Assembly: GCA_044229845.1 (NCBI GenBank)
Contig: JBGASG010000001.1
Span: 992,001 to 1,056,000, forward strand
Direction: 5' to 3'
DNA length: 64,000 nt
From: Candidatus Obscuribacteraceae bacterium
GTDB lineage: Bacteria > Cyanobacteriota > Vampirovibrionia > Obscuribacterales > Obscuribacteraceae
Shown here: positions 15,724 to 23,751 of the stretch, piece after piece
How the letters are laid out: every line of letters starts with the position of its first letter
Numbering within the stretch: the stretch's first letter is position 1
Made by a program: the position numbers and the translations under genes
Notes under the pieces: model-generated
Told to the model about the DNA's origin: nothing
The model's input: only the letters and a program-made list of their open reading frames with translations
Databases searched by the model: none

Positions 15724-16362
15724 CTATGGGCGCAATCCGTTGAGCACCATCGCTGTGGCCTCTTGTTTGTGCTGCGCCATCATTTCTTTGTTGAGCAAGG
15801 GTTTGCCGTCCCAGAGATGTTTGACGTTTTCACGCGCACAGAAATAGAAGATGCACATGCCGACTATGTTGACGGCGGTGTGCTTTGGATCGGCATCTCG
15901 GAAGAGTTCGGCTTTCACGCCGCGCTCGATGATGTGCGCGATCGTTCCATATAAAGTGATCACGCCGAGCTTGTTGTAGTACTTGCCCTTGTTCTGGATG
16001 GCTTCATACATAAAAATGGCGGATAGCCGGGTGTGCTCGGCCGCACTGTCTATAAATTGATCAATCACCACCCGCAGAGCTTCATCGGCGGGCAGCGACT
16101 CCAGCTCCAGTCCTTGCAGCGCGCGCAGTCGGTCAAGAAAGGCACGTTCCAGAACCGCTTCGTACAGGCCTTCCTTGCTCTTGTAGTAGTAGTGAATCAT
16201 TGCCTTGGTCACGCCTGTGCGTGCGGCGATCGACTCGGTACGCGCCCCTAGGAGTCCGTTCTGGGCGAACTCCTCTTCGGCTGCATCGAGAATGCTGGCC
16301 TTAGTGGCTTCGGCATCGCGTTGGTGGGTGGCTGCTGGTCTTGGCATGGCTGGATGGCTCAC
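15724..16362 (-). CDS. TetR/AcrR family regulator
   Basis: ILDAAEEEFAQNG..GARTESIA..TGVTKAMIHYYYKSKEGLY; divergent from the efflux genes. Confidence 0.95.
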   Translation of the reverse strand: MSHPAMPRPAATHQRDAEATKASILDAAEEEFAQNGLLGARTESIAARTGVTKAMIHYYYKSKEGLYEAVLERAFLDRLRALQGLELESLPADEALRVVIDQFIDSAAEHTRLSAIFMYEAIQNKGKYYNKLGVITLYGTIAHIIERGVKAELFRDADPKHTAVNIVGMCIFYFCARENVKHLWDGKPLLNKEMMAQHKQEATAMVLNGLRP

Positions 16363-16371
16363 TGGCGCTTA

Positions 16372-16389
16372 ACTTACCATTTAGTAAGT
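16372..16389. promoter_or_regulatory. Putative TetR operator 1 (ACTTAC-N6-GTAAGT)
   Basis: Inverted repeat directly upstream of tetR; resembles operator 2. Confidence 0.65.
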
Positions 16390-16431
16390 ATATCACGGGT
16401 GTCGCCGTTCGGCTTAGTTCTAAACAGGGGC

Positions 16432-16481
16432 TTGCCATTTGGCGTTTTAAGAGGTAGTATAACTAACAGACTGGTTAGTTA
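16432..16481 (+). promoter_or_regulatory. Sigma70-type promoter (TTGCCA-N17-TAGTAT) with putative TetR operator 2 (TAACTAAC-N6-GTTAGTTA)
   Basis: Read directly; the operator at 16460-16481 covers the expected transcription start. Confidence 0.7.
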
Positions 16482-16515
16482 ATAGAATAACCCAGCTTTG
16501 GAAATCCTGTGCATC

Positions 16516-17817
16516 ATGCAAGCTTTAAAAATCCCAACTCCGAATGCCCTGCCCGAACTAAAAGAGATTCTGATTTCGCCGGCGCCGGTGAAGAAACTGG
16601 CGAACAAGCGCAATCTCAAATGGCTCATCGGTGGTTTGGCGGCCGGGGTGTTGGTTACCGGCGGATTGACCTACTGGCATTTTGCTTCCATGTGGGAAGA
16701 AACCGACAATGCCACCATCACCGGTCACGTTCATAACATCTCCTCGCGCGTTGAAGGTGTCGTCACTGATGTGCTCGTCGACGACAATCAGGTAGTTCCG
16801 GCGGGAACGCCGATAGTTCGCCTCGACACTCGCGACTTCCAGACGCAAGTAATGAATGCACAAGCGTCACTCGATCGCGCGCGCAGTCAATTAGATGTTG
16901 CCTCGCAAACGGTTGAGTCCACCGGGACATCAGCCGATGCCGCCACCACCAGCGCTGCCAGCGATTACGCAGACGCAGTGGCCGACGTGGCGCGCGCTCA
17001 GTCAGCCGTCAGCGACGCCAGAGCCGGTGTCGCCATGGCTCAAGCGAAAATGAAACAACAAGAAGCAGAGGTCGTGCGCGCCAAAAATGACTTCCTCAGA
17101 TATAAAGATCTGGAAGCCGAAGGTGCCATCAGCACGCAGCAACTTGATTCGGCCAAGCGTGACTTGGATGTAGCCAACGCTGCCATGACCGGTGCCAAAG
17201 ATAACTACACCCAGTCGGTGACGCGGGTGCAACAAGCCAGCGACAGCGTGAAACAAGCGCAAGCTAAAGTCCTGCGCTCACAGAGCACTGCACAGCAAGC
17301 CAAGTCGCAAGTGCAACAAACAGATGTACGTCGCAAGGAAGTTGCCGTAGCTAAAGCTGCCACCGAGGAGCAAGCTGCATCGCTGCGCTCCGCCCAGCTG
17401 AATCTGTCGTATGCCACCATCGTTGCTCCGGTGGAAGGAACCGTCGGCCGCAAGACAGTGGAAGTAGGACAACGCATCCAAGCCGGGCAGCCTCTCATGG
17501 CGCTCGTCAGCCCTGAGCGTTGGGTAGTTGCCAACTTCAAAGAAACACAACTGGCACGCATGAAGGCAGGACAAGAAGTCGAAGTTGAAGTCGACGCTCT
17601 GCCCGGCGCACACCTGAAAGGAACCCTGGATAGTTTCTCGCCGGCATCTGGTGCCCAGTTTGCCTTATTGCCGCCAGACAACGCGACCGGTAACTTCACC
17701 AAGATCGTTCAGCGGGTTCCGGTGAAAATCCTCCTCAGTAATGAGTCTATGAAGAAGTACGGCACTCGTATCACCCCTGGCATGTCTGTGATCGCCAAAG
17801 TGAGAGTTGCCGACTAG
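16516..17817 (+). CDS. emrA: HlyD/EmrA family membrane fusion protein
   Basis: ETDNA, V.DNQ.V..G, coiled coil, VANFKETQL, LLPPDNATGNFTKIVQRVPV. Confidence 0.9.
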   Translation: MQALKIPTPNALPELKEILISPAPVKKLANKRNLKWLIGGLAAGVLVTGGLTYWHFASMWEETDNATITGHVHNISSRVEGVVTDVLVDDNQVVPAGTPIVRLDTRDFQTQVMNAQASLDRARSQLDVASQTVESTGTSADAATTSAASDYADAVADVARAQSAVSDARAGVAMAQAKMKQQEAEVVRAKNDFLRYKDLEAEGAISTQQLDSAKRDLDVANAAMTGAKDNYTQSVTRVQQASDSVKQAQAKVLRSQSTAQQAKSQVQQTDVRRKEVAVAKAATEEQAASLRSAQLNLSYATIVAPVEGTVGRKTVEVGQRIQAGQPLMALVSPERWVVANFKETQLARMKAGQEVEVEVDALPGAHLKGTLDSFSPASGAQFALLPPDNATGNFTKIVQRVPVKILLSNESMKKYGTRITPGMSVIAKVRVAD

Positions 17818-17843
17818 TTCTAAAACTTTTGAGAGCCCGAGTA

Positions 17844-19475
17844 ATGTCAGCCCAATCACAACCGCAATCAAAATCGAATTTGCAAGCTGAAGCACAAGCG
17901 GTGACTAGACCCGATGCCGCCACGCTTGCCGATGCGGTGCCGATGAAAAGTTGGATCGCCGTTTTCGGTGTGGCACTGGGCGCTTTCATGGCGGTGCTCG
18001 ACATTCAGATCACCAACTCGTCCATGGCCGATATTCAGGGCACACTTGGTGCCACTCTTGATGAAGGTTCATGGATCGCCACCTCGTATCTGGTCGCTGA
18101 GATTATGGTGATACCGCTGACAGCTTTGTTTAGCCGCGTCTTCTCAACTCGCCGCTATCTGCTGGCTACGGCCGCGCTTTTCGTTGTGTTCTCTGTTGCC
18201 TGTGCTTTCTCGTGGAACCTGCAAGCGATGATTGTTTTCCGTATGGCTCAGGGCTTCACAGGTGGTGCGCTGATTCCTATGGCAATGACCACAATGATGA
18301 CCCAGCTTCCCAAAGCCAAGCAGCCCATCGGAATGGCAATCTTTGGACTCACTGCGACATTTGCTCCGTCCATCGGACCTGCGCTGGGCGGTTGGTTGAC
18401 CAGCAACTTCGGATGGAAATACATCTTCTTCCTCAACATACTGCCTGGCATCGCCATGATGTCCGCGATTGCTTATTCGTTTCCTAAACAAAAAATGCAG
18501 CTGGAAATTCTCAGGACAGTCGATTGGTTCAGCGTACTGGCAATGGCTGTCGGACTCGGTTCGCTGGAAGTCGTATTGGAAGAAGGCAATCGCAAAGACT
18601 GGTTCGGTTCGCCTCTGATTCTCAATCTGGCAATTGTCGCCGCTATTACGCTGACGTTCTTCCTCTGGCGCCAACTGACCGCCAAGCAACCATTTATCAA
18701 CTTGCGTTTGCTTGGCGAACGAAACTTCGGCGTCGGTGCCACCGCTAACGTTATCCTGGGGATGGGCATGTACGGCTCGATCTACGTGCTGCCGATGTAT
18801 TTGACCCAAATCCAGGGCTACGATGCGCAGCAGATCGGTGGCGTATTGATGTGGATGGGACTGCCTCAATTGTTTATCGTGCCGTTTATTCCTAAGCTGA
18901 TGCAGAAGATCGATCCGCGCATCATGATCGCGGTCGGATTAATCGTTTTCGGCGGCAGCTCTGTTATGAACGCGTTCATGACTGCCGACCACTCAGGCGA
19001 TCAACTGGCTTTTGCCCAGGTGGTGCGCGCGCTGGGTCAGCCGTTGATCATGATTCCGCTCTCGTCTCTGGCGATGTCGCGTATCGCGCCTGAGCAAGCA
19101 GCGTCCGCCTCCGCACTCTTCAATATGCTGCGCAACCTTGGCGGTTCCGTCGGCATTGCCCTGATCTCCACATTCCTGACCCGCCGCGAGCAGTTTCATT
19201 CCAATATCATTGGACAGTCGGTGACGTTGTTTGATCCAGCTACGCAAGATAGGCTGAATCAAATGACGGCCAGCTTCGCTGCTCGCGGCGCGGACATGTG
19301 GACGGCGCATCAACAAGCCTTTGCCATGATCGACCGGCTGGTGCGCCGCGAGTCATTCATCATGGCGTTCAACGATTGTTTCTTCTTTTTTGGCTGTGTC
19401 CTGATAGTTGCCGCCGGCACCGCGTTTATTTTGAAAAAGGCGCAGTCAGGCGGGTCCGCCGCCGGTGCCCATTAA
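17844..19475 (+). CDS. emrB: DHA2/EmrB family MFS efflux permease
   Basis: GAFMAVLDIQITN, WIATSYLVAE, APSIGPALGG, LEEGNRKDWF, RNLGGSVG. Confidence 0.9.
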   Translation: MSAQSQPQSKSNLQAEAQAVTRPDAATLADAVPMKSWIAVFGVALGAFMAVLDIQITNSSMADIQGTLGATLDEGSWIATSYLVAEIMVIPLTALFSRVFSTRRYLLATAALFVVFSVACAFSWNLQAMIVFRMAQGFTGGALIPMAMTTMMTQLPKAKQPIGMAIFGLTATFAPSIGPALGGWLTSNFGWKYIFFLNILPGIAMMSAIAYSFPKQKMQLEILRTVDWFSVLAMAVGLGSLEVVLEEGNRKDWFGSPLILNLAIVAAITLTFFLWRQLTAKQPFINLRLLGERNFGVGATANVILGMGMYGSIYVLPMYLTQIQGYDAQQIGGVLMWMGLPQLFIVPFIPKLMQKIDPRIMIAVGLIVFGGSSVMNAFMTADHSGDQLAFAQVVRALGQPLIMIPLSSLAMSRIAPEQAASASALFNMLRNLGGSVGIALISTFLTRREQFHSNIIGQSVTLFDPATQDRLNQMTASFAARGADMWTAHQQAFAMIDRLVRRESFIMAFNDCFFFFGCVLIVAAGTAFILKKAQSGGSAAGAH

Positions 19476-19703
19476 ACAGATCTCTACCGGCGCCATTGGA
19501 TCGAAGTCTCTGCGCCAGAGGGTCAAGCGGTCTGCATCAGTTTTGATGCAGGAGCTGTCGATTTTGCTTGCCGACTGCTCAAAAAACCGGTGTGCTGACG
19601 CAAAAATCGGGTTGGCTGCGTCAATACTGATGCAAACCATCTCGACGCACCCCTGAGCAGGTCGCAGCGCGCGTTGGTGTGGGACACCCTGTTGGTCAAT
19701 GAG

Positions 19704-21026
19704 TTACGGTGTCAGGCGGTTGCGGTCGCGTGGAAATAGCGACGCCAGCTTGACGTTTGGCAGACCAAGCAGTTGTTTGGCCAGGCGTTCCAGACCGATC
19801 GCCAGACCGCCGTGTGGTGGCATGCCGTACTTGAAGCACTGCAGGTAGTCGCCGAAGTCGGCAGGGTTCATGCCGCGTGCGGCGATACTGCCGACCAGTT
19901 GCTCGTATTCATGAATACGCTGTCCGCCGGTTGTGATCTCCAATCCGTTGTAGAGCAAGTCGAAACTGTGCGTCATGCCCTCAGCAGTCGGCATGGCGTA
20001 AAACGGACGCACGTCCTTCGGATAACTGGTCACATAAACCAGCGGCACACCTTCAGCGGTTTGGAAATGCTCGCACAAAAGTTTCTCAGCGTCGGCATCG
20101 AGGTCGAGGCTCTCAGCGTCCGCAGGGCGCTTCCACCCAAGTTTTGTGCGCAGCAAAGTGTGCGCCTCTTCCAGAGTCAGCTGCGGTATTTGCGAAAACA
20201 CGGGTACCGTGGCACCCCAGAGCGCTAACTCGTGCTCACAGTTCTCGCGCACCGAGGCAAACATGTGCTGCAGCAGTTTGACCTGCATTGCCATCACATC
20301 TTGCTCGCTCTCGATGAAACCCATCTCAAAGTCCATGCTGATGTATTCATTGAGGTGGCGTGTCGTGTCGTGCTCTTCGGCGCGGTACACTGGTCCGATT
20401 TCGAACACGCGTTCGAACACGCCGACCATCATTTGTTTGTAGAACTGCGGACTCTGGGCAAGAAACGCTTTTTTGCCGAAGTAGTCGACGGCGAACAGCG
20501 CCGCACCGCCCTCGGTGCCGGTGGCGACCAGCTTTGGCGAGTGGATTTCGGTAAATTGCTGCCCGGTGAGAAACTCACGAAAAGCCCGGCAGAACTCGGC
20601 TTCCAGTTTGAAGACGGCGCGCACTTTCTCGGCGCGCAGGGTCAAGGGACGGTAGTCGAGCATCGCGGAGAGCGACAGACTGTCTACCTTGGAAGACTTG
20701 TTGACTTCGACAGGTATGGTTTCACGGGACGCCGAGAGCGGTTCCACGGAGATCAGGTGGATTTCGTTGCTCGCGGGTTTTCCGTTGCTCTGCGCCGCAG
20801 CCACCCTGCCGGTGACGCGGACCGGGGTTTCCAAACCAAGCCCCGACACCTGCGCGACCAGAGCCTCGTTGTCTGCAATCAACTGAATGATGCCTGAGCG
20901 GTCGCGCAGCAGCACGAAGGCAATCTTGCCGAGTTTGCGAATGGCGTGCACGAAACCGCTGAGCGTCACTTCGCTGCCGACGCTCTGCTGGGGTACTTCT
21001 TCGACTAACGTCGCTTGGCTGTTCAT
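19704..21026 (-). CDS. aspS: Aspartate--tRNA(Asp/Asn) ligase, short archaeal-type, probably non-discriminating
   Basis: OB-fold (LRDRSG), LAQSPQFYKQ, motif 2 YRAEEHDTTRHLNEY, motif 3 PPHGGLAIGLERL; 440 aa, no GAD insert. Confidence 0.9.
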   Translation of the reverse strand: MNSQATLVEEVPQQSVGSEVTLSGFVHAIRKLGKIAFVLLRDRSGIIQLIADNEALVAQVSGLGLETPVRVTGRVAAAQSNGKPASNEIHLISVEPLSASRETIPVEVNKSSKVDSLSLSAMLDYRPLTLRAEKVRAVFKLEAEFCRAFREFLTGQQFTEIHSPKLVATGTEGGAALFAVDYFGKKAFLAQSPQFYKQMMVGVFERVFEIGPVYRAEEHDTTRHLNEYISMDFEMGFIESEQDVMAMQVKLLQHMFASVRENCEHELALWGATVPVFSQIPQLTLEEAHTLLRTKLGWKRPADAESLDLDADAEKLLCEHFQTAEGVPLVYVTSYPKDVRPFYAMPTAEGMTHSFDLLYNGLEITTGGQRIHEYEQLVGSIAARGMNPADFGDYLQCFKYGMPPHGGLAIGLERLAKQLLGLPNVKLASLFPRDRNRLTP

Positions 21027-21043
21027 GGTCTTCCTTTATCTCC

Positions 21044-21077
21044 AAAATAAAAAACCGCGAGGCTTGTGCTTCGCGGT
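21044..21077 (-). terminator. Attenuator terminator upstream of aspS
   Basis: Minus strand ACCGCGA-agcacaagcc-TCGCGGT followed by TTTTTATTTT, ending about 18 nt before the aspS ATG. Confidence 0.85.
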
Positions 21078-21105
21078 CCTGACTTGTTTGATGCTTCTTT
21101 GAGAA

Positions 21106-21237
21106 TTAGCGATGCAAACAGTAGGACCGCGAGCGGTCGTTATTGTCAGCATCGTTATTATTAGCGTTAGCCGCCGCAAAACTACCGAAGCTGGCGCTCC
21201 GGGCGTTATTTGCTTTAACTGTGGCTAGTGCTTGCAT
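21106..21237 (-). CDS. Asn/Asp-rich leader peptide of aspS (43 aa)
   Basis: MQALATVKANNARSASFGSFAAANANNNDADNNDRSRSYCLHR*; 9 of codons 24-34 are Asn or Asp; overlaps the antiterminator arm. Confidence 0.8.
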   Translation of the reverse strand: MQALATVKANNARSASFGSFAAANANNNDADNNDRSRSYCLHR

Positions 21238-21246
21238 ACAAGGCGA

Positions 21247-21276
21247 AGGATAATCCCGACCCCCCTGCCGCGTCAA
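21247..21276 (-). promoter_or_regulatory. Putative promoter for the aspS leader (TTGACG-N18-TATCCT)
   Basis: The -10 box ends 9 nt before the leader ATG, implying a near-leaderless transcript. Confidence 0.55.
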
Positions 21277-21300
21277 CTCATTGTGAATTTCTAAGGCCGC

Positions 21301-22572
21301 GTGTGGGGTATATTGGCTTTCGTGAGTTCGAATAAGCATCTCTACTATGTCACCAATCGCAAGGAGAGCAGCCCCGCTGGTGTCCACGCGGAGCCTGGGA
21401 AAAGCGGGCAGCGGTACAGGTTCTTTGGTCCTCATCGCAGTCAGGACCTTGCGGTCGGACAATTCGGAATCGAAAATGATGAGATCGTACTCACCAATTT
21501 GGCTGGAATCGAGTCCATCGAGATCACTCCTGACTCGCGTGTTGTTGTCTTCGTTCCGGGATACAACACGCGTTTTGCCGACAGTCTGGTGGTCCTAAGT
21601 CAATTACACCAAGCCCTTCTGTCCACGAGCGATCTGGTTTGTATTCTGTTTTCGTGGCCTTCAATGGGGTCTGCGTTCGCGTACATGCAGGATGAATGCT
21701 CCGTCCAGTTCAGTTACCCGCACTTCAAACTGTTGATCGATTCGATTGCGAAGCGATTAAGCAGCCACTCTCAGTTAAGCCTTGTAGGGCACAGTCTCGG
21801 CTGTCAGCTCGTGCATAGATATGTACTCGACAGAACTGCTCGCGAAGGCAAGTCTGCCGGCATGGTAGTTCTCTCTTCGCCTGACATAGACTATCAAACC
21901 GCTACGCTCGAGTCAGAGCGGCTAAAGTTCTCCGCGGGTATAGACTCGGGCTTCATTCTGGTGAGCGACGTGGATGGTCCTCTGGAAGTCTCGCGTTCGC
22001 TGCATGGTTATACGCGGTTGGGAAGACCATCTCTTTCGACGATGCGCAGTCTCTTTTGGGGAACGTTCCGCACCGGATCGCTCACGAACATTTTTTCCAC
22101 CATTGCTCATGTCCCGATATTTCTGATGGAGCAAGCGATCCGCTGGGTGAAATGCGGACTCAAAGACCCAGATCAAGTCTGGCAGGAGCAAAACCAGGGT
22201 AATGGAATCGCTTTTGCGGACAACATCTCGCTGTTCGATTTCACCAGGGCGGATCGCATGCAAAGGCGATTTGGACACACCGTGTGTGTTGATCTGGTGG
22301 CATCGCTTTTGAGTTCCGGAAGCCCACCGGCAGGGTGGGACCAACGGACAATCGTAAAGATACCCGACGAATACGGATATCGAGAATGTTTCCTCCTGCC
22401 GTATTCTCGACACAATCCCTACGGGCAAGATCAGGTGACGCTATTTAGTTACCGCCAATTGATCCCTCCGGCAAATGGACAGCAGCAGCTACATGGGGAG
22501 GCTGGGGGCGGGGTTGTCTTTGGTGACCTTGCTGTACCAGTCGCCGGGGTGGCGGACGACGATGCCGGCTAA
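21301..22572 (+). CDS. Alpha/beta hydrolase, DUF900-like
   Basis: YYVTNR, VFVPGYN, FSWPS, GHSLG nucleophile elbow, SPDID, RLG. Confidence 0.8.
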   Translation: MWGILAFVSSNKHLYYVTNRKESSPAGVHAEPGKSGQRYRFFGPHRSQDLAVGQFGIENDEIVLTNLAGIESIEITPDSRVVVFVPGYNTRFADSLVVLSQLHQALLSTSDLVCILFSWPSMGSAFAYMQDECSVQFSYPHFKLLIDSIAKRLSSHSQLSLVGHSLGCQLVHRYVLDRTAREGKSAGMVVLSSPDIDYQTATLESERLKFSAGIDSGFILVSDVDGPLEVSRSLHGYTRLGRPSLSTMRSLFWGTFRTGSLTNIFSTIAHVPIFLMEQAIRWVKCGLKDPDQVWQEQNQGNGIAFADNISLFDFTRADRMQRRFGHTVCVDLVASLLSSGSPPAGWDQRTIVKIPDEYGYRECFLLPYSRHNPYGQDQVTLFSYRQLIPPANGQQQLHGEAGGGVVFGDLAVPVAGVADDDAG

Positions 22573-23751
22573 TTCGAGCATCGTCAGAGTCGCTGACATT
22601 TCACCGGCCGGCATACCGGTGCGTTCGCACAGTACATCAAAGTGGGTCGGAACTTCGACGAGCAGATCATAGATTTCTTTCTCGCGTCCAAATAGTTCAA
22701 CGACTGTCGGTACCATATGTGGTGCTTCAACCTTCACCCAGTTCATTTCCTTGAGCAGGTCTTCGGCGCTGGCGATCAGGTGCGCTTTGCGATTGATTAC
22801 CAGCGCATTCGATCCCTTGAACGTGGGGCTGTCGATACGACCGGGAATGACAAACACTTCGCCGCCACTGTCGAAAGCCATGTGGGCCGTGATCAAAGCG
22901 CCGGAACTCTCTGGTGCTTCGACGATCGTGATGGCTTGGGAAATGCCGGCTACGATGCGGTTTCTCTGAGGAAACATCCACTTGTCCGGCTGTGTGCCGG
23001 GGAAATATTCGGACACAACGCAACCGTTGTTGGACAGAATGGCGTCATAGAGTTTTTTATTGGGTGGTGGGTAAATCACATCGACACCGCCGGCCAGCAC
23101 GGCAATAGTGACGCCACCACCTTCGATGGCGCCCCAGTGCGCTGCGGAGTCGATGCCTGACGCCATGCCGCTGGCGATGATGCACCCGGACTGCACCAGT
23201 TGTTGCGAGATGTCCCTGGCAGTCTTCAAACCGTATTGTGTCGCCTTGCGAGTCCCGACAATCGCGCACACATAATTAAGCCGTTGCGGCGGCGGGAAGT
23301 TGCCGCGCGCGTAAATCACCATCGGTGGTTCGTGGGCATGCCGCAGCTTAAAAGGGTAGGCAGGGTCGACGAAGGTTATCGCTTCCACGTCGGTTTTGCG
23401 CAGCCGAGCCAGAATTTCGTCTGGGTTGCAAGTTTTGCGAAACGCGGCAAGTTTCTTGAGTATCACCGGAGTGAATAGGTCTGCGCTGACGCCTCGCAAT
23501 TCGTCATCCGAAGCATGCCAGGCAACTTCCATGCTCCGAAAGCGGTCCAAGAGCAACGCGATTTTCTTACTGCCCAGCAGGTTATGGTCCTGCGTGAGTG
23601 CAAGCCAGTATTTCAGCTCGTCGTCGGGGACGCGGTCGTCTTTGTTGCTATAGCCCATAGCGGGCAATTGTACCAACTGCCACGGGGGCAATTCCTCACC
23701 TGGTTTTGCCCCTGGTTTTGCCCCACAGACAAAGGGTGAGCAGCATTTCAA
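22489..23751 (-). CDS. dprA: DNA-processing protein DprA (true start probably downstream of 23751)
   Basis: AIVGTRKAT.YG, SGMASGIDSAAH, SEYFPG, FPQRNRIVAG, SGALITA, C-terminal winged helix LTMLELAG. Confidence 0.95.
   Translation of the reverse strand: MKCCSPFVCGAKPGAKPGEELPPWQLVQLPAMGYSNKDDRVPDDELKYWLALTQDHNLLGSKKIALLLDRFRSMEVAWHASDDELRGVSADLFTPVILKKLAAFRKTCNPDEILARLRKTDVEAITFVDPAYPFKLRHAHEPPMVIYARGNFPPPQRLNYVCAIVGTRKATQYGLKTARDISQQLVQSGCIIASGMASGIDSAAHWGAIEGGGVTIAVLAGGVDVIYPPPNKKLYDAILSNNGCVVSEYFPGTQPDKWMFPQRNRIVAGISQAITIVEAPESSGALITAHMAFDSGGEVFVIPGRIDSPTFKGSNALVINRKAHLIASAEDLLKEMNWVKVEAPHMVPTVVELFGREKEIYDLLVEVPTHFDVLCERTGMPAGEMSATLTMLELAGIVVRHPGDWYSKVTKDNPAPSLPM

Follow-up and report, generated by a model that had tools for sequence, protein, structure and literature searches.

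A putative two-input asparagine/aspartate leader-peptide attenuator upstream of an archaeal-type aspartyl-tRNA synthetase gene in Obscuribacterales

The window analyzed here, a 64,000-nucleotide stretch of the genome of a Candidatus Obscuribacteraceae bacterium (contig JBGASG010000001.1), carries on its minus strand the gene aspS2 (19704-21026), identified from NCBIfam and the ORF map as an archaeal-type aspartate-tRNA(Asp/Asn) ligase of 440 amino acids. It is probably monocistronic because the next long ORF is convergent. The surroundings are ordinary: a TetR-family regulator divergent from an EmrA/EmrB-type efflux pair (15724-19475, convergent with aspS2) and dprA (22489-23751). A DUF900 alpha/beta hydrolase gene (21301-22572, plus strand) is divergent, and the promoter regions of the two genes may overlap. 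The features described below are all on the minus strand, in window coordinates. A sigma-70-type promoter recognized from sequence (21247-21276), composed of TTGACG (21276-21271), an N18 spacer and TATCCT (21252-21247), is the sole promoter-like site in 20900-21600, where 0.4 would be expected, and transcription would start at about 21240. Nine nucleotides past the -10 box lies the near-leaderless ATG, without a Shine-Dalgarno site, of a 43-amino acid leader ORF (21106-21237, stop TAA at 21108-21106), which contains eight Asn and three Asp codons. Six of the Asn and all three Asp codons are gathered in the tract NANNNDADNND (21136-21168). As had been proposed, the ORF is hidden from view, since the ORF map gives it as the tail of a longer ORF of 118 amino acids.

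The tract is followed by a set of overlapping inverted repeats. A weak 1:2 hairpin, GACCG/CGGTC (21125-21138, -6.9 kcal/mol), is a candidate pause or protector element. Segment 2 (21115-21134), the 5' arm of a predicted antiterminator, consists of the core TCGCGGTCCT (21132-21123) and the extension TGTTTG (21120-21115). Segment 3 (21068-21090), which would serve both as antiterminator 3' arm and terminator 5' arm, contains CAAACA (21090-21085), pairing with TGTTTG, and AGGACCGCGA (21080-21071), the complement of TCGCGGTCCT. The intrinsic terminator (21044-21080) is built of a hairpin at 21080-21054 with a predicted energy of -16.7 kcal/mol and a U tract at 21054-21044; its stem is interrupted, and it is not among the five matches of a simple terminator scan. 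A purine-rich ribosome-binding region for aspS2 (21030-21043, GGAG at 21043-21040), recognized from sequence, comes next. ORF, tract, antiterminator with its extension, small hairpin, terminator and promoter are thus all located where the original prediction had put them. Rfam gave no match at E<=5 over 19000-23000, including the T-box (RF00230), which the same search detects before related aspS genes of Bacillota, and searches of NCBIfam and Pfam with the leader peptide gave nothing at E<=0.01.

Sixteen RNA runs contained 5-19% of words, and assembled contigs of four of them were placed on the locus. The leader is covered by RNA contigs in two of these four, from two studies whose libraries may hold DNA. 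Run X9 gave a single 240-nt contig (21016-21255) that includes 10 nt of aspS2 and reaches 15 nt upstream of the predicted start and, at its other end, about 30 nt past the terminator, and run X1 gave two contigs across the leader and the start of aspS2. Runs X3 and X10 contain pieces inside aspS2 only, and missing cover elsewhere is no evidence. The contigs give no clean transcript ends.

Within the order the aspS2 orthologue was found in 91 of 107 genomes, and in a sample of 401 genomes across the phylum it was found in three, the present one included. We examined 89 of the 91 loci and 88 had upstream DNA (G015 and G049 were excluded for lack of it and G027 because its contig ends at the start codon). 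An ORF rich in Asn and Asp (N/D) ending before a terminator was found in 85 of these 88 loci from 27 genera, although such counts overstate independence because the genomes are kin. Together with covariation of the antiterminator over 25 genera, described below, this is what the proposed alignment of upstream regions was expected to reveal. Tracts have a median of six Asn and two Asp codons, with at least one of each amino acid in all 85. Since the definition of the tract favours N/D, its codon totals (AAT 357, AAC 156, GAT 106, GAC 102, any other at most 9) have to be read with that in mind. A promoter of the same kind (TTGA/TTTAC-type -35, N16-18, TANNNT) precedes 77 of the 85 leaders, and in all 77 the tract frame has a start codon between promoter and tract and stays open, while the other two frames do so in 25 and 16 loci. 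The stop codon lies 22-42 nt ahead of the terminator arm in 78/78 scored loci, and in 43 of the 78 the sequence that pairs with the terminator arm starts 9 nt past the last N/D codon, the distance in the present locus being 6 nt.

Leaders have 5-12 N/D per 12 codons (at least six in 83/85), while the maximum upstream of bacterial aspS genes is six, reached in two of 31 loci, and 13 loci upstream of asnS, gatB, gatA and asnB have 3-6 and no N/D leader. In the present genome the leader tract reaches 8 N/D per 10 codons against a maximum of 7 among 112,666 other small ORFs, the leader itself having fallen outside the length filter of that scan.

Folding of the leader is better than expected from composition (z -3.44, none of 200 shuffles equally good). 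Both conformations were recovered as the original prediction had anticipated, with the mutually exclusive antiterminator at -31.2 kcal/mol (z -6.8, 50 shuffles) and the terminator at the energy given above. Across 78 loci the antiterminator energy has a median z of -3.8. A terminator hairpin with a U-rich tail is present in all 85 leader loci by a permissive search and in 78 by a fixed motif. The terminator arm was counted as paired in 64 of 78 loci, but since the same is seen in 45% of shuffles this count is weak, and we relied instead on energy z-scores, a ribosome-position model and covariation. The model combines equilibrium folding with a ribosome that covers 7 nt beyond the A site (9 nt in a variant). 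The predicted median pairing of the terminator arm with upstream RNA is 0.80 when the ribosome stalls 2-6 codons before the end of the tract, 0.67 at its last codon and 0.16 at the stop codon; the values for the present locus are 0.95, 0.40 and 0.26. The modelled difference between stall and stop exceeds 0.3 in 75 of 85 loci (77 with 9-nt cover), and the modelled switch is weak in genera g32 (0.19) and g4 (0.22) and in G072, a close relative with a pairing of 0.66 at the stop codon.

In the absence of a ribosome the equilibrium model favours the antiterminator, with a median of 0.76 and a value of 0.94 here, where the two folds are predicted at -34.4 (antiterminator) and -30.2 kcal/mol. The GACCG/CGGTC hairpin, which had been put forward as a protector, does exist, but by equilibrium folding it loses to the antiterminator and lacks the strength to keep ribosome-free RNA OFF. 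It would therefore be at best a pause signal, with repression coming from the translating ribosome, and the model needs efficient coupled translation. Untranslated RNA is accordingly predicted to be ON, so that removal of the leader ATG should raise output and not lower it. Super-attenuation by a strong 1:2 protector is a trait of trp and his leaders and is not required of all attenuators; with the weak protector seen here, unlike in trp and his, it is not predicted.

Pairing between the antiterminator flanks is better preserved within genera than when arms are exchanged between them: 6.28 within versus 5.12 between 25 genera for Watson-Crick pairs (3 of 10,000 permutations) and 7.36 versus 6.43 when G-U pairs are included (14 of 10,000), both results being somewhat inflated by kinship among genera. 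Both arms were anchored on the GC core, which left out 18 of the 85 loci without an anchor and thereby genera g15 and g37. In genus g26 the antiterminator core itself is changed, and in one of its genomes (G059) the change is on both strands.

The product of the downstream gene matches NF003483 with 543.7 bits (cut-off 353) and TIGR00458 with 422.9 (cut-off 368.4), and among solved structures it is closest to that of the non-discriminating AspRS2 from Thermus thermophilus (1N9W/3KFU, E 1.9e-126). We take the signature of non-discriminating enzymes to be His or Gln in place of Trp, together with a Pro in loop L1, in the anticodon domain. At the first site the present protein has His where 3NEL has Trp, and 30 orthologues have His (13), Gln (9) or Tyr (8) but never Trp; the Pro column, which aligns poorly, is present in six of the 30. 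By its family scores aspS2 encodes an archaeal-type AspRS, and its activity is presumed to be non-discriminating. In a tree of 69 AspRS sequences all 30 full-length proteins from leader-bearing loci form one clade (support 0.97), and those of the leaderless loci G038, G040 and G053 fall outside it. In G038 and G040 a distantly related leaderless aspS2 (L299, L300) lies directly behind an ORF that, judging by its motif, we presume to be amidinotransferase-like; asnS was found in none of three genomes of their genus.

Contrary to the expectation that asnS would be lacking, it is present here (505-amino acid product) and in 92 of 107 genomes. A second, bacterial aspS is found here and in 98 of the 107 genomes overall. 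Its products have Leu at the expected His site in 31/31 sequences and vary at the expected Gly site, two sites that we take to be the discrimination positions of bacterial AspRS. A gene of the asnB family occurs in 61 of 61 genomes, a set made up of those with a completeness of at least 90% and the present one, although the substrate amidated by its product may not be free Asp. The present genome yielded no asnA. With AsnRS, an AsnB-family enzyme and a bacterial AspRS in place, aspS2 is most likely a back-up enzyme that probably opens an indirect route to Asn-tRNA.

That route needs GatCAB, and the presumed gatCAB set was only partly recovered. The genome has gatA, but gatB was not found in its 88%-complete assembly nor in G072. 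It is known from 80 of 107 genomes, which makes it scarcer than asnS (92) or aspS2 (91), and it was found in neither of the two genomes of this genus; several of g2 and g32 lack it too. The gene adjoining gatB in relatives is also missing from the present assembly. As no GlnRS above cut-off is found in this genome, GatCAB should be necessary, and an assembly gap is a likelier explanation than real loss, although G072 lacks gatB as well.

We propose that the attenuator senses the supply of Asn-tRNA(Asn) and Asp-tRNA(Asp). With both tRNAs charged, the ribosome would reach the leader stop codon and cover segment 2, so that the terminator would form and the transcript would end at about 21046. With either tRNA in short supply it would stall in the N/D tract, segment 2 would pair with the 5' arm of the terminator and aspS2 would be transcribed. 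In Asn shortage AspRS2 would then make Asp-tRNA(Asn) for GatCAB, the indirect route, and in shortage of Asp-tRNA it would add charging capacity. The predicted Asn/Asp leader-peptide attenuator before a non-discriminating AspRS came through every sequence test (85 of 88 loci, frame, spacing, switch geometry, covariation), and on this evidence, in part modelled, we regard a two-input, ribosome-mediated Asn/Asp attenuator of aspS2 as probable and a leader-peptide attenuator, for either input, as very probable. Against the attenuator reading stands the ilvB leader of Streptomyces coelicolor, which looks similar but showed no response to codon changes (PMC1262725). The idea that the leader monitors the products of its own enzyme needs amending: the codons are indeed those for Asn and Asp, but what they would read is Asn-tRNA(Asn) and not the enzyme's own Asp-tRNA(Asn). 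Asn-tRNA(Asn) is the product of AspRS together with GatCAB, or of AsnRS.

An attenuator that senses only Asn, with Asp codons serving base pairing or having drifted from AAY, seems unlikely to us, although several observations are in accordance with it. Asn codons outnumber Asp codons (513 to 208), a bacterial AspRS is present in the great majority of the genomes, and in the present locus the last Asp codon helps to form the 1:2 hairpin, so that a stall there frees the antiterminator poorly (0.40/0.18). However, each of the 85 tracts holds at least one Asp, GAT and GAC are used equally, and other one-step neighbours of AAY are rare, to the extent that the tract definition, which favours N/D, allows such a comparison. 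Furthermore, a modelled stall works at 202 of the 208 Asp codons, and in Bacillota it is Asp that dominates the leaders of related aspS genes.

Three further explanations dispense with the sensing of tRNA charging. The tract could act as a spacer without structure or be bound by a protein, for example by the synthetase in autoregulation, within an RNA switch independent of translation, with the ORF only incidental. This would be in line with Shine-Dalgarno sites that are weak or absent and start positions that vary in many relatives, and with the absence of conservation in the peptide outside the tract. Yet a start codon and an open frame accompany the tract in its own frame only, the distance from stop codon to terminator arm is kept in every scored locus, third codon positions within tracts vary freely and Rfam has nothing to offer at E<=5, all of which makes such a switch very unlikely. 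Arrest by the nascent peptide, in the manner of TnaC or ErmCL, with a small molecule or antibiotic sensed in the exit tunnel, could be suspected from the R-x-R-like residues right after the tract in many leaders. Those Arg codons, however, coincide with the pairing core CGC/GCGG, and leaders with an altered RNA core have Trp-Trp or Leu-Val-Ala in their place. Tract length and order vary, and the control residues correspond to the tRNAs that the enzyme encoded downstream takes as substrates; we consider peptide arrest highly improbable. Finally, a constitutive terminator beside an unregulated (AAT)n microsatellite would account for one locus at a contig edge (G028) with a pure run of 18 AAT, but not for mixed synonymous codons, kept frame, kept spacing and antiterminator covariation, and being largely refuted by conservation it deserves almost no credence. 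The two-input attenuator is the reading we retain in what follows.

Classical leader-peptide attenuators are those of E. coli trp, his, thr and pheST, of which the thr leader reads two amino acids, Thr and Ile. The present leader resembles them in its short ORF carrying a cluster of control codons, in the antiterminator and terminator with a repeated GC core and U tract, in a downstream gene that would supply the sensed aminoacyl-tRNA and, as in thr, in combining two amino acids in one leader. It differs in having Asn and Asp as control codons, in preceding a back-up, non-discriminating synthetase and in its occurrence in non-photosynthetic Cyanobacteriota. The attenuators of this class in E. 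coli are named in the accessible part of PMC1262725. Closer in terms of the gene controlled are the Cys leader uORFC-8-2, which precedes cysS in Rhodobacterales (PMC8632094, in part), and, in Streptomyces lividans, alaL, thrL, trpL2 and leuL2 before the Ala, Thr, Trp and Leu synthetases, together with the Met leader metL (PMC8079986, in part). As far as these partial sources go, they too combine a leader peptide and hairpins before an aminoacyl-tRNA synthetase gene, and several are leaderless transcripts, as is predicted here, but each senses one amino acid, and not two as proposed here. The available texts of both papers contain no mention of aspS or asparagine. An aspS leader has been predicted in Shewanella and, in the portions of PMC2659441 at hand, is not described as a peptide. 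Searches of an open-licence library and of Rfam returned no Asn/Asp leader peptide, subscription attenuator surveys and paper supplements being outside the search, and, as had been supposed, the Asn/Asp input appears to be undescribed.

On the side of the enzyme, a second, archaeal-type AspRS together with GatCAB makes Asn on tRNA beside AsnRS in Thermus and Deinococcus, according to the available part of PMC4206432. The present AspRS2, likewise an archaeal-type second enzyme beside AsnRS and a probable GatCAB, is similar to that of Thermus thermophilus and Deinococcus radiodurans, but these genera, in the same partial source, are without Asn synthetase, while here an AsnB-family gene is present and no GlnRS is over cut-off. 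A parallel in regulation combines redundant direct and indirect Asn routes with one element that reads both tRNA(Asn) and tRNA(Asp). In Clostridium acetobutylicum aspS2-gatCAB is under the control of T-boxes, one of them a two-codon T-box, as reportedly described by Saad in 2012 and 2013. There uncharged tRNA binds the RNA directly, whereas in the present leader, which has no T-box, the ribosome would be the sensor.

Related aspS genes elsewhere are preceded by leaders of other designs. A pattern derived from Lachnospiraceae, which contains NRDDD by construction, has 36 matches with an aspS-like gene downstream in 35. In Lachnospiraceae and other Bacillota (L256-L291; L026, L028, L029, L050, L068, L079) an LNRDDD leader of 11-19 codons is followed by alternative hairpins, a terminator and an aspS2-like gene, and no T-box was found in the 12 of these loci that were scanned. 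The gap between terminator and aspS holds a second conserved element in L027, L028, L051, L068, L264 and L271, an ATG led by GGTGAT and then a GGACATA/TATGTCC hairpin. In Paenibacillaceae all seven loci recovered consist of a T-box and then a D/N-rich uORF overlapping the start of aspS, an arrangement found in three further Bacillota loci; in these groups (L292-L298; L019, L021, L022, L024, L031) the uORF, which contains a D/N run and is preceded by a strong Shine-Dalgarno site, ends at or overlaps the aspS start, which makes tandem control of transcription and translation possible. Three scanned Clostridium loci have a T-box alone. Cultured species are among the carriers of both the Lachnospiraceae and the Paenibacillus version. 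In another family of the phylum (L191, L192) uORFs of 21-22 codons with a DAD motif and GC-rich hairpins precede aspS2. Each group of loci with one leader type forms a separate clade in the AspRS tree, and an independent origin of the leaders is suggested because their RNA structures are unlike.

Within the present genome a strict genome-wide leader scan found Leu and Met leaders of similar design. The Met-rich leader (10869-10973 of L193, minus strand; near 200.4 kb of contig C3 of G000) has 34 amino acids, the run MMMSMNM and a terminator of -24 kcal/mol, and precedes a cystathionine gamma-synthase gene (NF005871 over cut-off) and a short aspartokinase-like gene. At least three Met per 10 codons are found in 27 of the best 30 loci of the order. 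The Leu-rich leader (2737-2826 of L193, minus strand; near 192.3 kb of the same contig) has 29 amino acids and a terminator of -19.3 kcal/mol and lies before a leuA-like gene.

To our knowledge, the way in which cells with both AsnRS and a non-discriminating AspRS choose the indirect route is known only for T-box organisms. The leader described here offers a ribosome-based answer to the choice between the direct and the indirect, error-prone routes to Asn-tRNA, and it is also independent sequence evidence for AspRS2 serving tRNA(Asn). We give an even chance to the wider reading, taken as a whole, in which a default-ON two-input attenuator leaves to the ribosome the choice of the direct or the tRNA-dependent Asn route and is one of at least three separately built Asp/Asn sensors on a mobile aspS2, namely the Obscuribacterales leader, the Lachnospiraceae LNRDDD leader with its own hairpins, and the T-box with a D/N-rich uORF running into the aspS start in Paenibacillus and Symbiobacteriaceae. 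If this reading holds, Asn and Asp would join the amino acids read by leader peptides, and a lineage of Cyanobacteriota would be running a set of attenuators for Asn/Asp, Met and Leu.
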